IMG/VR virus record: IMGVR_UViG_2645727555_000023
From: a virus
Lineage: Duplodnaviria; Heunggongvirae; Uroviricota; Caudoviricetes
Reading direction: 5' to 3' (one strand)
DNA length: 4,795 nt
Of the stretch, positions 241 to 4,795 are shown piece by piece (position 1 is the stretch's first letter; each line of letters opens with the position of its first letter). The notes under the pieces were generated by a model that was given only the letters and a program-made list of their open reading frames with translations, did no database searches and was not told the origin of the DNA. The position numbers and the translations under genes are program-made.

Positions 241-266
241 TAAAAAAGGCGTCCTGTGGACGCCTT
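241..266 (-). terminator. Rho-independent terminator downstream of the recombinase gene
   Basis: Minus-strand sequence right after the TAA stop (273-271): AAGGCGTCC-ACA-GGACGCCTT (9-bp GC-rich stem, 246-266) followed by TTTTTTA (247-241). On the plus strand it is preceded by an A-run and followed by T-rich TTGTGTTT, so it may act bidirectionally. Confidence 0.6.
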
Positions 267-270
267 GTGT

Positions 271-2610
271 TTACTCTTCTACTGACTCGGTGGGGTTGTC
301 TTTTGCTCTTCGGTCGTCGATTGCCTGCAAAGCCGCAATGATTTCAGCCAGTGGCTTCTCCCGATACATCTCGACGATCTGTGATTTGGTGTATTTCTTG
401 TCACCAATTTCAACTCGCCCGCTGGCGTTCTTTGGCAGGTATCCTTCATCCAGCATGTACTCGACGAGCGATTCGATAACGTCGAGGCCACGAGTAGGAT
501 CGAAGTAGAATTTCCAGGTGCATTTGCCATACGGTGGTGCAACTTTGTTTTTGATGCATTCTGCGCCTACGTCTTGGCCGATCTTCTCTTTACCATCCTT
601 CATCACCGATGCACCAAGACGGATACGTACAGAAGCGTAGAACTTCGGTGAATCTCCACCTGGCGACGTAGTAGGGTCGCCAAACATTACACCGATTTTT
701 GTGCGAACCTGATTCAAGAAGATGATGCAGGCGTTGTATTTGCGTGCCCACAAAGCCAGAGTAGGGAAGTTCGCACTCGTCGCACGAGCCAGTGCCGTAT
801 TGTCGTTCATGTTTAGCTGATCTTTGTCTTTGGCTGTGCCTTCAGCCATCTTTTCGAACTTCTCGGCTTTGGAGTTCGGAACCATAGACGCAAGAGAGTC
901 AGCCACGATACAGATTGGTGCTGATTCGGGGATAAGCTCTTCATCACGAACCAATTTAAGTATTGTGCCGATCAACTCTACAGAGTCTTCGAAGGTATCT
1001 GGCTGCTTGTATACCCACTGACCGTCATCCTCATCTGCGTTCAGGCCATTGGCTACAGCCAGGCCAACGTCAAAACTGTTTTCATGATCGAGGAATACCG
1101 CCAGACCATCTTGTTTTTGAGCGGAGATCATCGCTGCTGTTGCAAGGAATGTGTTGTGGCTGATAATCCCGTTAGACCAGAAAGAGTGTGTTTCCGGCAT
1201 CGCTACGTCGAACGTTGGTGCTTCACCTTCCTCAATAGCCACGACTTCGTCGTAGAACAAGTTAGAGCCAATTACCGCTGCCAGTTGTGCAAACAGATGC
1301 TCGTTAAAACGATTCTTTCTGCCAATGAAGGAGACATAGATTTCTCGCAGTTTGTCTATTCCGACACGATCGCCGCGGCCAATAACGTGGTCTACCAGAG
1401 CGTAGTCTTCACGGGTGGTCTTGGTGAGCGACTCGTAGAGTGATTTCACTAAGCCGCTGATGTGCGGAACATAGCCTGAGTAAGTGCGGTCAAAACCAAT
1501 GTCCCGTTTGGTTGCCACTGATAAACGTGCCGGAGATTCGAAACCAATCGTTGACAGAAAAAGGTCGTAATTAGAGCCACTGAATGACAGCCGGTAATAT
1601 GTATTTTCATAACCCGCGACGTGTTTTTCAGAGATAGTTGACGTAATCCCCAGATTCAGGAGCATGAGGCGAATTTGCTGTAGCAGCAGCCCACTCGCGC
1701 TTACAACCTCAATGCAGCGACCATCATTGACGTGGCATTCCAGCTCAAAGTAGCCGCGAAGGAATGCAATTTGAGCCTCGCTATTGGCGCGACGCACACT
1801 CAACGGAACCTGCTTGCCAGCAGCTTTCTCATACTCCAGACCATATTCTTTAAAAAGCAGCGAACGCACCTCTTTGCTAAACAGCACATGGTCTTCCGAG
1901 CCGTTATGTTTTCTCGTAACTGGCATCTTGTCTGATACCAGCGAAATGAGGCGGTAGTACTCATCCTTGATGAAAGGATCTGTGTTAGAAAAATTCACTG
2001 AATTTTCAGAGGCCACGTATCCGTCAGCAATTAAATAGCCCATCAGTTTTGCGATATTGGCATCCAGGTGCTGATCGCCGAATTGATGTGTGCCAACCAT
2101 TGAAGGAATCGTGTCGCCTACACTGATTTTTTCAGCATGTCGCCAGACGACATTACCTAAGTCGTCAACCACACGGATTGGGTGACGGAACGTAGCCTCG
2201 ATATAACCGCCTGATGCCAGCTTAATACGCTTGAATTTGCGACGGTTGTTCCATGTCAGGTGTGAGGTCTTCTCTATCACGCCATTTTCATTGATGAGTC
2301 CAACGTTATGCTCTACATCGCGAGTAGTGCATGTCGCTTTGTACCCTTCAATCTCAAACAACTCTTTCACTGTTACCATTCCACGCTCCGTCAGCAGCAT
2401 GGTGTCTGCGGTAACACATTTCCCCGCGCTTGGAGGACCGAATACTTCGACGATACGACCACATGGGAAGCCGCCATCGTAACGACCAGAAATAGCTTTG
2501 TTTAACGGTGGAAAGCCTGTATCAATCCAATGAGTTACTTTCTGAATTTCGTCGTTGCTACCGATTTTCTTTTTCAGAGCAAGTGCCAGTGCGGATTTTC
2601 CTTTTGCCAT
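271..2610 (-). CDS. recA: RecA-family recombinase precursor (779 aa) containing a 422-aa intein; predicted spliced product 357 aa
   Basis: Exteins align to bacterial RecA hallmarks: N-extein GRIVEVFGPPSAGK + C-extein TFLATAAMI rebuilds Walker A GPPSAGKT (RecA GPESSGKT); Walker B-like ICIVADSLASMVP; L2-loop region FLNQVRTKIGVMFGDPTTSPGGDSPKFYASVR closely matches RecA [32 protein letters not shown]. ATG at 2610 is preceded by AAAAGGAG 7 nt upstream. Symbol denotes RecA family; a phage-encoded homolog is likely. Confidence 0.9.
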   Translation of the reverse strand: MAKGKSALALALKKKIGSNDEIQKVTHWIDTGFPPLNKAISGRYDGGFPCGRIVEVFGPPSAGKCVTADTMLLTERGMVTVKELFEIEGYKATCTTRDVEHNVGLINENGVIEKTSHLTWNNRRKFKRIKLASGGYIEATFRHPIRVVDDLGNVVWRHAEKISVGDTIPSMVGTHQFGDQHLDANIAKLMGYLIADGYVASENSVNFSNTDPFIKDEYYRLISLVSDKMPVTRKHNGSEDHVLFSKEVRSLLFKEYGLEYEKAAGKQVPLSVRRANSEAQIAFLRGYFELECHVNDGRCIEVVSASGLLLQQIRLMLLNLGITSTISEKHVAGYENTYYRLSFSGSNYDLFLSTIGFESPARLSVATKRDIGFDRTYSGYVPHISGLVKSLYESLTKTTREDYALVDHVIGRGDRVGIDKLREIYVSFIGRKNRFNEHLFAQLAAVIGSNLFYDEVVAIEEGEAPTFDVAMPETHSFWSNGIISHNTFLATAAMISAQKQDGLAVFLDHENSFDVGLAVANGLNADEDDGQWVYKQPDTFEDSVELIGTILKLVRDEELIPESAPICIVADSLASMVPNSKAEKFEKMAEGTAKDKDQLNMNDNTALARATSANFPTLALWARKYNACIIFLNQVRTKIGVMFGDPTTSPGGDSPKFYASVRIRLGASVMKDGKEKIGQDVGAECIKNKVAPPYGKCTWKFYFDPTRGLDVIESLVEYMLDEGYLPKNASGRVEIGDKKYTKSQIVEMYREKPLAEIIAALQAIDDRRAKDNPTESVEE
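1153..2418 (-). mobile_element. Intein (422 aa) with LAGLIDADG homing-endonuclease domain, inserted in the recombinase P-loop between Lys64 and Thr(+1)
   Basis: Starts with Cys (TGT at 2418-2416) in a block-A-like CVTADTMLLTERG. Block B TFRHPIRVV (TxxH). Two LAGLIDADG motifs: LMGYLIADG (2046-2020) and LRGYFELEC (1761-1735). Blocks F/G TFDVAMPETHSFWSNGIISHN end in His-Asn (AAC at 1155-1153) followed by Thr +1. Removing it restores a contiguous 357-aa RecA. Confidence 0.85.
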
Positions 2611-2612
2611 GA

Positions 2613-2879
2613 TCAGGCTCCTTTTGTTTCGTTGATTCGTTTTACAGCGGCGGATTCATCGAATACAATCGCATCGTGGTTAAGGAGTCTGGATACACGA
2701 GCGAGGATTTTTACGACCTGCTCGCTGACTAATCCAAACTCGCGATCTGTCGCTTTCATTCCGGCAGCGCCTAGAATTGACGGCAGTGCGATGACAGCGT
2801 ACTCACCGTGATAAAAGACAATCTCTTTTGCCAGTTGGGCAGGGGTGGTTGTAGCGCCATTGATAATCGATTTAAGCAT
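2613..2879 (-). CDS. Hypothetical small protein (~88 aa), translationally coupled between the exonuclease and recombinase genes
   Basis: ORF track gives 2613..2885 from a TTG. The in-frame ATG at 2879-2877 overlaps the exonuclease TAA stop (2881-2879) as TAATG and is the more likely start. No recognisable motif; function unknown. Confidence 0.55.
   Translation of the reverse strand: MLKSIINGATTTPAQLAKEIVFYHGEYAVIALPSILGAAGMKATDREFGLVSEQVVKILARVSRLLNHDAIVFDESAAVKRINETKGA
2618..2624 (-). promoter_or_regulatory. Shine-Dalgarno (AAAAGGAG) for the recombinase gene, embedded in the 3' end of the upstream small ORF
   Basis: Minus-strand AAAAGGAG lies 7 nt upstream of ATG 2610 and overlaps the last codons (K-G-A) of the upstream ORF, whose TGA stop (2615-2613) sits 2 nt before the ATG: translational coupling. 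Confidence 0.6.
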
Positions 2880-3823
2880 TAGCAATACCTTTCGAATGGA
2901 AGAACAAACACTTCAAGGTCTTCAAGGAACGAACGGAAATTCAGCTCGTAGCACAGTTGCTCGAATGCTTTCACGTCACGATTGCCTTTGATTGTTTCGA
3001 TTTCGGTAGGCGGAAACTTCGTCTCAATCAGGTTCATTAGCGTGATGTTTCTCTTGAACGCTTCGAGCATTCGACAGCCTGTTTTCTCGTTGAAGGCATT
3101 CTTCGCTAGTTTGTTGAAGGCGGTCTTATGGCGTCCTTTGTCAACCACGATTGAGCCGTCGTTGATGCCGCGTACCATCGTTGCGACACTTCCCCATTCA
3201 TGCAGCAGCTCTTTCGCACCGCCAGCACCAATGCCACCAACACCGCTAATGTTGTCCGATTTATCGCCTTGTAATGCTTTTGCTTCCAAAAATGCGCGAG
3301 GAGTAGCGAATCCTGTCAGCTCCGCAAATTGCTCAAAATTAACCTGCTTGTTTTTGGCGTCTTCGCGCAGGCTTACCCAGCTTACGTTTTCGCGAACTAA
3401 CTGAAGCCAGTCGCTATCGCCTGTTAACAGATAGATGTGTTCAACGGTTGGCTGCGGTGCCATGCGGGATACCAGCAGCCCGGCCAGATCATCCGCTTCT
3501 GCATCTTTTGCAATGAGTTGGGTAACTCCAAGCGCGGTCATCATTTTGAGGATGTATGGCTTCTGGATAGCAAAGCCTTCCTTCATCTTTTTCATATCAG
3601 GATCGTCGTCGCGATTTGCTTTGTAGTCCGGGTAAAAGTCGCGACGCTTGTCACTAAATCCATCCCAAAGAATCATAGGTCGGGCATGGAGGATGGAGGC
3701 ATAACGACGGACGTTCTTAACAAAGCCGAAAGCAGCCTGTACTTCCATTTCGCCGTTGTGCAATTTGTCAGATTGTTGGTGGTAATAACCCAGGCTATTG
3801 CCATCTACGAAGAGATAATTCAC
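2879..3823 (-). CDS. 5'-3' exonuclease / flap endonuclease (FEN family, Pol I 5'-nuclease-like)
   Basis: N-terminal motif NYLFVDGNSLGYY (compare Pol I 5'-nuclease LILVDGSSYLYRAYHA), acidic cluster LLTGDSDWLQLV, and H3TH motif ALQGDKSDNISGVGGIGAGGAKELLHEWGS (compare Taq ALTGDESDNLPGVKGIGEKTARKLLEEWGS). ORF track starts at GTG 3874; the in-frame GTG at 3823-3821 with GGAAGGAA SD 8 nt upstream is preferred because codons 2-12 of the longer ORF are the terminator hairpin and T-run. Stop TAA at 2881-2879. Confidence 0.85.
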   Translation of the reverse strand: MNYLFVDGNSLGYYHQQSDKLHNGEMEVQAAFGFVKNVRRYASILHARPMILWDGFSDKRRDFYPDYKANRDDDPDMKKMKEGFAIQKPYILKMMTALGVTQLIAKDAEADDLAGLLVSRMAPQPTVEHIYLLTGDSDWLQLVRENVSWVSLREDAKNKQVNFEQFAELTGFATPRAFLEAKALQGDKSDNISGVGGIGAGGAKELLHEWGSVATMVRGINDGSIVVDKGRHKTAFNKLAKNAFNEKTGCRMLEAFKRNITLMNLIETKFPPTEIETIKGNRDVKAFEQLCYELNFRSFLEDLEVFVLPFERYC

Positions 3824-3838
3824 CGGTACATTCCTTCC

Positions 3839-3867
3839 AAAAAGTAAGGCGTCCGTAGACGCCTTAC
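3839..3867 (-). terminator. Rho-independent terminator or attenuator between the SSB-like gene and the exonuclease gene
   Basis: Minus strand, 17 nt after the SSB-like TAA stop: GTAAGGCGTC-TACG-GACGCCTTAC (10-bp stem, 3867-3844) followed by TTTTT (3843-3839), then the SD and GTG of the exonuclease. Stem arms AAGGCGTC/GACGCCTT are identical to those of the terminator at 246-266. Confidence 0.55.
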
Positions 3868-3883
3868 TGGTCACGTAATGGGA

Positions 3884-4651
3884 TTACAGAGAGTCCAGTT
3901 CTCTCAGTAGGTCATCCAGACCTTCATCTTCCGTCGCAGATGCGGTTGCTACAGATGTCGCTGCTACTGCTTCAGACTCTTTGACTGATACGGCAACGGC
4001 AGCGGAACTTGCTTCTGGTTTAAATTCAGTTTCAACGGCACGGAGGATTTCTTCATCAACCAGACTGGTTGGTTCAGAAGCTGGGGTGTGAGCGGTTGCT
4101 ACAGCAGTCGCACCCTCCGTATGACCAGTGACAGAGCCAAATCCAGGCAGTGCCGCGGCCGATGTTTTCGCGGTAGAGGAAATTGCTGGTGCAGATGCTG
4201 CGGCAGTTGGTGCAGCGATGCCAATCAGACGACCCATAGTGCGAACTGTCGACAGAAGACGAGTTTCATCAGCCTGATTTGCGTATGCGATCAGATCATG
4301 CTGGGTGTTCCAGAATTTATCTTCGATATCGCCTTTGTAGACTTTACGCTTAGGCGAGACGTCATATTTGGTATCGCGACCAGAACCAGTACGTTTAATC
4401 AGGAATGCGTAGCCTTCCTCTTTGCTCAGTGGATTGCCGATATCATCAGCGATGTCTTCGGTGATTGCTTTGCAGATATCATCGAATACAGTAGACGGCA
4501 GCTCGATTAACTGGCATTTCTCAGCATCTGCGAAATCCTCACGAGCAGAAAGAATGCCGTTGACCAGGTAGCGAGGAGTGGCACGCATTTGACCGATGCG
4601 TTCTTCCATTGCTTTGTTACCCTTGTGACGAGCGCGACCTTCCATAACCAT
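3884..4651 (-). CDS. Putative ssDNA-binding protein (gp32-like features), probably a 3' fragment of a gene disrupted by the adjacent IS element
   Basis: Long Ala/Ser/Thr-rich low-complexity linker ending in acidic tail EDEGLDDLLRELDSL, typical of SSB C-termini. The frame stays open upstream of the first ATG up to the IS boundary (4701) and encodes C-x8-C-x2-C (YICEQHTHGRACQLCEM), reminiscent of the T4 gp32 zinc site. No Shine-Dalgarno precedes ATG 4651 or 4645. Functional call is motif-level only. Confidence 0.5.
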   Translation of the reverse strand: MVMEGRARHKGNKAMEERIGQMRATPRYLVNGILSAREDFADAEKCQLIELPSTVFDDICKAITEDIADDIGNPLSKEEGYAFLIKRTGSGRDTKYDVSPKRKVYKGDIEDKFWNTQHDLIAYANQADETRLLSTVRTMGRLIGIAAPTAAASAPAISSTAKTSAAALPGFGSVTGHTEGATAVATAHTPASEPTSLVDEEILRAVETEFKPEASSAAVAVSVKESEAVAATSVATASATEDEGLDDLLRELDSL

Positions 4652-4701
4652 TTCGCATAGCTGACAAGCGCGACCGTGAGTATGTTGCTCACAAATATAA
4701 G

Positions 4702-4795
4702 TGAACCGCCCCGGGAATCCTGGAGACTAAACTTCCTGAGAAAGAGGTAAACAGGATGACTAAAAATACTCGTTTTTCCCCTGAAGTCCGTCAAC
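4702..4795 (+). mobile_element. Left end of an IS3-family insertion sequence (IS629/IS1203-like), continuing beyond the window
   Basis: Sequence begins TGAACCGCCCCGGG at 4702 (IS3-family termini start 5'-TG). It is followed by GAGG SD and an ATG at 4756 opening an ORF MTKNTRFSPEVRQ..., which matches from memory the N-terminus of IS629-group OrfA transposases. Exact IS identity is unverified. Confidence 0.7.
4756..4795 (+). CDS. IS3-family transposase OrfA, N-terminal 13 codons (partial, runs off window)
   Basis: ATG at 4756-4758 with GAGGT 7 nt upstream; translation MTKNTRFSPEVRQ. Recognition is from recalled IS629/IS1203 OrfA sequence. Confidence 0.7.
   Translation, partial: MTKNTRFSPEVRQ

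Follow-up and report, generated by a model that had tools for sequence, protein, structure and literature searches.

The small orphan gene between the exonuclease and recA genes of SSU5-type phage-plasmids appears to be a lineage-specific accessory gene and not a core recombination factor

The 88-codon open reading frame (ORF) that separates a FEN-type exonuclease gene from a recA/uvsX-like gene in an Escherichia coli phage-plasmid appears, from comparison with related elements, to be a lineage-specific accessory gene rather than a core recombination factor. An earlier note on this DNA had proposed, from the position of the ORF, that it could encode a mediator or regulator of RecA loading. A core role of this kind is unlikely because the recombination module works without the ORF in other lineages and already has a UvsY-like candidate. 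The window (the whole stretch of DNA that was analysed, 4,795 nt) is 96% covered, at ∼98% identity, by the Escherichia phages PhiR41_1 and Cyrano, the latter displaying 97.8% DNA identity, while Salmonella phage SSU5 is more distant. On the basis of its coverage by, and identity to, these phages the window belongs to an E. coli phage-plasmid of the SSU5/pHCM2/pMT1 type.

All the genes of the module are carried on the minus strand, in the order gp32-like protein, hairpin, FEN exonuclease, 88-codon ORF, RecA/UvsX-like recombinase and terminator-like hairpin. The features of the window are as follows:

246–266, minus strand: intrinsic-terminator-like hairpin and T run just past the recA stop codon, from a terminator scan
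271–2610, minus strand: intein-bearing RecA/UvsX-like recombinase gene of 779 codons (PF00154, E 3e-36; phrog_97, UvsX-like)
1153–2418, minus strand: LAGLIDADG intein of 422 aa, RecA residues 65–486 (PF14528, PF14890; boundaries from alignment to intein-less RecAs)
2613–2879, minus strand: the small ORF, ortholog of SSU5_059 and member of PHROG 2207, 88 codons plus TGA at 2615–2613 (ORF list and profile match)
2618–2623, minus strand: recA Shine-Dalgarno sequence AAGGAG, 7 nt before the recA ATG and within codons 85–87 of the small ORF (read from the sequence)
2879–3823, minus strand: FEN-type 5′-3′ exonuclease gene encoding 314 aa (PF02739, E 2e-24; PF01367, E 5e-12)
2888–2892, minus strand: Shine-Dalgarno-like AAAGG of the small ORF, 8 nt before its ATG and within the 3′ end of the exonuclease gene (read from the sequence)
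3844–3867, minus strand: perfect 10-bp hairpin and downstream TTTTT, located between the gp32-like and exonuclease genes (fold −22.2 kcal/mol, z −4.35)
3884–4701, minus strand: gene for a gp32-like single-strand DNA-binding protein (SSB) that has lost its 5′ part (PF08804, E 4e-44, profile positions 60–208 only)
4702–4795, plus strand: left end of IS629, comprising the inverted repeat TGAACCGCCCCGGG... and the start of orfA (99–100% matches to annotated IS3-family IS629 in Stx phages)

The Pfam matches bear out the neighbour identities given in the earlier note, an exonuclease and an intein-split RecA. The exonuclease start is a GTG codon at 3823, preceded by GGAAGGA; the mechanical ORF reaches 3874, and the resulting length of 945 nt agrees with the Cyrano and SSU5 annotations. 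The intein is inserted in the Walker A motif of RecA (GPPSAGK/T), and the spliced product, of 357 aa, is 95% identical to the intein-less RecA of SSU5. In intact relatives the gene upstream of gp32 (CYRAN_52 in Cyrano) weakly matches the UvsY-like family phrog_231 (E 5.5e-4). The module is, from these matches, T4-like, with UvsY-like, gp32-like, FEN and RecA/UvsX-like components.

The RecA intein is polymorphic among near-identical elements, being present in Cyrano, PhiR41_1 and many plasmids, and missing from SSU5 and CMS-2020a. Acinetobacter relatives (L099, 4456–6654) have a RecA intein elsewhere, behind the sequence GDPT near residue 220, and the Walker A and GDPT sites thus represent two independent insertion points in the family. 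IS629 has inserted in the gp32-like SSB gene, removing its 5′ part, and homology to Cyrano and PhiR41_1 stops at 4701. No plasmid in PLSDB carries the same IS629/gp32-like junction. The element probably lacks its own SSB owing to this insertion, which may also have cut off the recombination operon from its upstream promoter.

The small ORF matched the PHROG 2207 profile over its full length (E 6.1e-54; residues 1–88 on positions 1–88 of 88). This match, in combination with the homologs, which reach down to 26% identity, the dN/dS values, a confident fold and conserved junctions, shows the ORF to be a genuine gene that codes for a protein of an orphan family, and the ∼88-aa frame of the earlier note was thus confirmed. 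An in-frame TTG at 2885 would lengthen the product to 90 aa; however, all the homologs use an ATG or GTG that overlaps the exonuclease stop codon rather than the upstream TTG. In the profile alignment ten residues are invariant (M1, S4, P13, L16, A17, E19, G25, T44, E47 and R61), and T12, K18 and R46 are nearly so. Estimates of dN/dS (Nei-Gojobori), 0.07–0.12 for the small ORF compared with 0.02–0.03 for the flanking exonuclease and RecA genes, indicate that the ORF is under purifying selection, although its non-synonymous rate is 3–6 times that of its neighbours. The protein diverges faster to a matching degree, retaining 31–45% identity between elements whose exonucleases are 49–66% and RecAs 51–74% identical. 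Truncated or frameshifted alleles beside intact neighbours occur in nature (P0020, P0026, P0027 and L034), showing that the small ORF is dispensable at least for plasmid carriage.

Some database records of the family are irregular. The small ORF is joined to an intein C-terminal fragment in P0031 and to an unrelated N-terminal sequence in P0042, while P0036 is 145 aa in length; these chimeric proteins probably arose through errors of assembly or gene calling, or through local deletion. In phage Cyrano (OV696614.1; L001, 8518–8785) the ORF is intact and 98% identical to that of the window, but it is unannotated in the GenBank record, and so expression studies that use this annotation will have missed it.

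The ORF was located by tblastn in 12 phage records and in 814 plasmid records of PLSDB, the plasmid hosts including Klebsiella, Escherichia, Enterobacter, Yersinia (pMT1), Salmonella (pHCM2), Citrobacter, Cronobacter and others. Profile searches widened the family to elements of Xenorhabdus, Providencia, Morganella, Moellerella and Pectobacterium, at 26–40% identity. The wider homology search comprised an exhaustive HMM search over 1.84 billion representatives, and one single-sequence and two profile searches of a 5.8-billion-sequence database; in both collections PHROG 2207 stayed within Enterobacterales phage-plasmids. A genome-contig profile search with a sub-alignment of the small ORF returned three loci only and a viral-contig search with RecA returned only close relatives. 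The RecA homolog has a broader distribution, occurring in 984 PLSDB records that include 138 from Acinetobacter and 11 from Aeromonas, and the small ORF is present in none of the records of these two genera. In every context from which it was recovered the small ORF lies after the exonuclease gene and before recA. In one viral contig (L078, 2033–3568) the RecA gene is 5′-truncated and an opposite-strand ORF of 511 aa, with no Pfam match, takes the place of the small ORF and the exonuclease gene, an arrangement that probably reflects an insertion or rearrangement.

Direct reading of the sequence showed that the junction details in the earlier note, a TAATG overlap with the exonuclease stop, a 2-nt gap before recA and a recA Shine-Dalgarno sequence in the last codons, were all correct. 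At the upstream junction the plus-strand CATTA at 2877–2881 corresponds to TAATG on the minus strand, such that the exonuclease stop codon TAA (2881–2879) has one base in common with the ATG of the small ORF (2879–2877). Downstream, the TGA of the small ORF is followed by two bases, TC (2612–2611), and then by the recA ATG at 2610–2608. This layout is shared by almost all of 95 related loci. The stop/start overlap with the exonuclease gene is 1 nt (TAATG or TGATG) in 80 and 4 nt (ATGA or GTGA) in 13, giving 93 of the 95; a spacing of exactly 2 nt before recA is found in 91 of the 95. The layout persists even where the small protein is only 26–40% identical. A purine-rich GAGG or AAAGG element is found at the same place before the start of the small ORF in most related loci, while the recA Shine-Dalgarno sequence is AAAGGAG or, in the other clade, GAGG. 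This embedded ribosome-binding sequence accounts, at least in part, for the conservation of the C-terminal K86-G87 (L-E in the other clade). The exceptions to the 2-nt gap are L003 (16 nt), L010 (59 nt), one case of −1 and L034, in which the frame stops prematurely; downstream coupling has been lost in two of these lineages, L003 and L010. The 59-nt spacer (5265–5323) between the small ORF and recA of L010, a divergent lineage, contains a GC-rich palindrome (GCGCGGGCACCGATGCCCGCC).

The start and stop codons of the small ORF are suitably placed for termination-reinitiation with both neighbours. A stable RNA structure was predicted at neither junction (z about +0.5) and no Rfam match was found in the junction region, so that an RNA element or an obligatory coupling structure at these sites was rejected. 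A promoter-like antisense site at 2641–2669 was within chance expectation. As no occluding fold is predicted and an accessible Shine-Dalgarno sequence precedes both the small ORF and recA, independent initiation is possible, and the junctions are thus predicted to permit translational coupling but not to enforce it. Overlaps of 1–4 nt are, furthermore, common among neighbouring genes of these elements, SSU5 being an example, and, as short overlaps are common between unrelated adjacent phage genes, the spacing of the small ORF is weak evidence for a role.

The exonuclease-ORF-recA unit is flanked by two near-identical GC-rich hairpins, at 3844–3867 and 246–266, with the core AAGGCGTC...GACGCCTT. 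The first of these, which was overlooked by the terminator scan, is predicted to be terminator- or attenuator-like and may attenuate read-through from gp32. The small ORF is transcribed within the unit bounded by the two hairpins. With respect to the tight coupling described in the earlier note, the layout and the shared expression unit are upheld, but coupling is not enforced and the junctions lack a stable predicted RNA structure.

The relationship of the small ORF to its neighbours is illustrated by modules of the same order in which it is missing. According to an independent study, the Acinetobacter AB group is a relative of the SSU5 supergroup, above all in phage and recombination functions (Pfeifer et al., PMC7969092). 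In Rhizobium phage RHph_X66, whose RecA is 49% identical, genes for Pol III alpha, a gp32-type SSB, a 5′-3′ exonuclease, RecA, an ASCH protein and SbcCD follow the SSU5 order, and the exonuclease gene (3986–4939) runs directly to recA at 4959 with nothing between. The Acinetobacter baumannii plasmid p5626 encodes a gp32-like protein, a FEN exonuclease (3416–4453) and an intein-containing RecA that starts at 4456, the exonuclease-recA junction, TGAttATG, being of the same stop-NN-ATG form as that between the small ORF and recA. In Aeromonas pKAM330_1 the gp32-like and FEN genes are separated from recA by a gene for a 198-aa DNA methyltransferase (phrog_799, E 3e-44). This gene (L098, 3843–4439) follows the exonuclease gene after a 2-nt gap.

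The missing ORF does not appear to be present elsewhere in these modules in another form. An unfiltered hmmsearch of the small-ORF profile against all ORFs of the RHph_X66, Acinetobacter and Aeromonas loci gave a best E of 3.8, and alignments revealed no compensating extension in the exonuclease or RecA of the relatives that lack the ORF. The idea that the small protein is a split domain, derived from the C-terminal domain of the exonuclease or the N-terminal domain of RecA, was rejected on the same grounds, as the ORF-less relatives have no matching extension and hmmsearch --max gave the best E of 3.8 already mentioned. An 87-aa ORF upstream of the SSB gene in RHph_X66, considered as a relocated copy, was unrelated by eye and by hmmsearch.

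The exonuclease-recA junction is thus a variable slot, empty or otherwise filled according to lineage, and in the enterobacterial elements it is occupied by the small ORF. Tight spacing seems to belong to the slot, and not to the small ORF, since the Acinetobacter exonuclease and recA genes have the same stop-NN-ATG junction without it. The Aeromonas methyltransferase suggests, in addition, that the slot is open to cargo unrelated to recombination. The existence of three syntenic modules without the small ORF indicates that FEN and RecA work in its absence. Such absence from otherwise syntenic modules was the observation that the earlier note named as refuting its proposal, and the absence of the ORF from gp32-exonuclease-RecA modules in three lineages argues against a core mediator. 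Tight spacing, on which the RecA-loading role was based, does not support that role either, given that overlaps are common, that the same junction exists without the ORF and that the UvsY-like gene lies elsewhere in the module. T4 UvsY helps a UvsX/RecA-type recombinase onto gp32-coated DNA, which is the role that had been proposed for the small protein. However, the two proteins display no similarity, no Pfam or PHROG UvsY match was found for the small ORF, and it is the gene upstream of gp32 that has the UvsY-like match. Nor does the small ORF co-occur with the recombinase across related modules, as would be expected of a UvsY-type mediator. The separate UvsY-like gene is thus, from its profile match, the likelier mediator of the two.

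A model of the small protein, predicted by AlphaFold2 from a 24-sequence alignment, was of high confidence (pLDDT 91.2, pTM 0.82), so the structure prediction that had been called for yields a confident three-helix fold. Helices at residues 13–38, 45–67 and 75–86 are preceded by a short N-terminal stretch that includes a beta bridge and in which the sequence MLKSII/MITSLI is conserved. Conserved polar residues comprise S4, T12, K18, E19, T44, R46, E47 and R61, and the protein is close to neutral (pI about 8, net charge about +1), some members of the family being acidic and most slightly basic. The earlier note recognised no sequence family, and searches by sequence and by fold agree. No significant match was obtained against Pfam, NCBIfam, PADLOC or PDB sequences, with the single sequence or with profiles of 17–24 members, the best leftovers being SLATT_2 (E 0.076) and scattered single-member matches, and Foldseek of the model against BFVD returned nothing at E 0.001 or better. 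The protein displays no sequence or fold similarity to RecX, DinI or PsiB, and neither the acidic surface nor the fold of the DNA mimics lambda Gam, T7 gp5.9 and Ocr. Three-helix proteins of the Pol III theta/phage P1 HOT type were rejected, with an hhalign probability of 0.4% against theta and no sequence or fold similarity, as was homology to T4 DsbA (hhalign probability 0.2%).

The closest known counterpart, SSU5_059 (YP_006906691.1), is a 77% identical protein, also of 88 codons, whose gene overlaps the exonuclease stop in the same way and likewise ends 2 nt before the recombinase gene. SSU5_059 and its RefSeq orthologs on pHCM2-, pMT1- and pKpn-type phage-plasmids are labelled 'hypothetical protein', and a literature search found no paper on the small ORF, SSU5_059 or PHROG 2207. 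Among better studied phages, lambda Gam, P22 Abc2, T7 gp5.9 and Rac Lar are host-directed proteins encoded beside recombination or exonuclease genes. The small ORF may be analogous to lambda Gam, P22 Abc1/Abc2 and Arf, T7 gp5.9 and Rac Lar in being short, lineage-specific and co-expressed beside exonuclease or recombinase genes. In contrast to these resemblances of context, it has no sequence or fold similarity to Gam, Abc, Arf, gp5.9 or Lar and is not acidic, and its partner is a RecA/UvsX-type recombinase accompanied by gp32 and UvsY-like proteins, whereas the recombinases of that group are of the Red/Erf/RecT type. A second parallel is provided by T4 DsbA, a dsDNA-binding protein. At 89 aa DsbA is close in size to the small protein, and its gene lies directly downstream of the FEN gene rnh, the same post-FEN position in a T4-type cluster; however, the genes after dsbA are 33 and 59, whereas the small ORF is followed by the recombinase gene, recA.

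The small protein most likely would act by binding another protein, as it has no catalytic, DNA-mimic or DNA-binding signature and is predicted to be a compact bundle of helices, neutral in charge, in which polar residues are conserved. We tentatively favour, at a probability of about 0.35, a putative adaptor or modulator of the element's own FEN exonuclease and/or RecA-like filament. Such a protein would act during lytic, recombination-dependent replication and would be made in fixed proportion to FEN and RecA; loading of the recombinase would probably be left to the UvsY-like gene, with the small ORF an accessory refinement gained in the enterobacterial lineage. A target within the element's own machinery is favoured because of the strict linkage to, and co-expression with, the exonuclease and recA genes. 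Counting against it are the absence of the ORF from syntenic modules, the Aeromonas methyltransferase, the faster evolution of the ORF, its broken alleles, the commonness of overlaps and the lost downstream coupling. A more specific form of the proposal, in which PHROG 2207 would be a putative new class of small phage RecA/UvsX regulators, three-helix adaptors that link FEN to the RecA-like filament or cap the filament, is unlikely.

Several of the observations that weigh against a modulator of the element's own machinery fit an inhibitor directed at the host, which the permissive slot would carry as cargo; this explanation is the closest rival to the favoured one and almost as likely. Upon expression of the recombination genes such an inhibitor would bind a host protein and block or divert it, the candidates being a nuclease that processes DNA ends (RecBCD, for example), a component of restriction or of another defence, or the RecA/SOS system of the host. 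It is consistent with the limitation of the ORF to Enterobacterales elements, when the flanking module reaches Acinetobacter, Aeromonas and Rhizobium, with a self-protection gene (the DNA methyltransferase) in the Aeromonas slot, with evolution faster than that of the neighbours and with the dispensability evident from some natural alleles. However, the protein is not acidic, and so is no DNA mimic of the Gam, Ocr or gp5.9 kind; it has no PADLOC match and no fold match, and its dN/dS of about 0.1 carries no arms-race signature.

A small nucleic-acid-binding or regulatory protein, DsbA-like in role and tuning transcription or replication of the element, is quite improbable. The parallel with T4 rnh-dsbA in position and size and the slightly basic pI of most members are offset by the 0.2% hhalign score against DsbA, a net charge of only about +1 with some members acidic, the lack of helix-turn-helix geometry (the first helix extends over 26 residues) and the lack of any DNA-binding family match. 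It is least probable of all that the ORF is a translated spacer, with a peptide of little importance and a frame retained chiefly to bring ribosomes on from the exonuclease gene to the start of recA. While the extreme conservation of the junction geometry and the use of the last codons as the recA Shine-Dalgarno sequence are in keeping with such a function, purifying selection acts across the whole protein (dN/dS 0.07–0.12), the ten invariant residues persist down to 26% identity and the predicted fold is confident. In addition, relatives join the exonuclease gene directly to recA with no spacer, and recA has a strong, unstructured Shine-Dalgarno sequence of its own.

SSU5-type phage-plasmids are widespread in clinical Enterobacterales, including relatives of pMT1 of Yersinia pestis and pHCM2 of Salmonella Typhi, and their T4-like recombination module is essentially unstudied. 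The small ORF is already in databases as a hypothetical protein, and it has no feature that is unexpected in a phage early operon. A useful outcome of the analysis is negative, in that close spacing to recA does not constitute evidence for a mediator, given that related modules have nothing, or another gene, in the slot. As a conserved, confidently folded and abundant orphan the small ORF is a cheap and well-defined experimental target. If the protein modulates the RecA or exonuclease of the element, it would be a new accessory factor in UvsX/RecA biology; were it instead to inhibit a nuclease or defence of the host, it would be a new anti-host protein.
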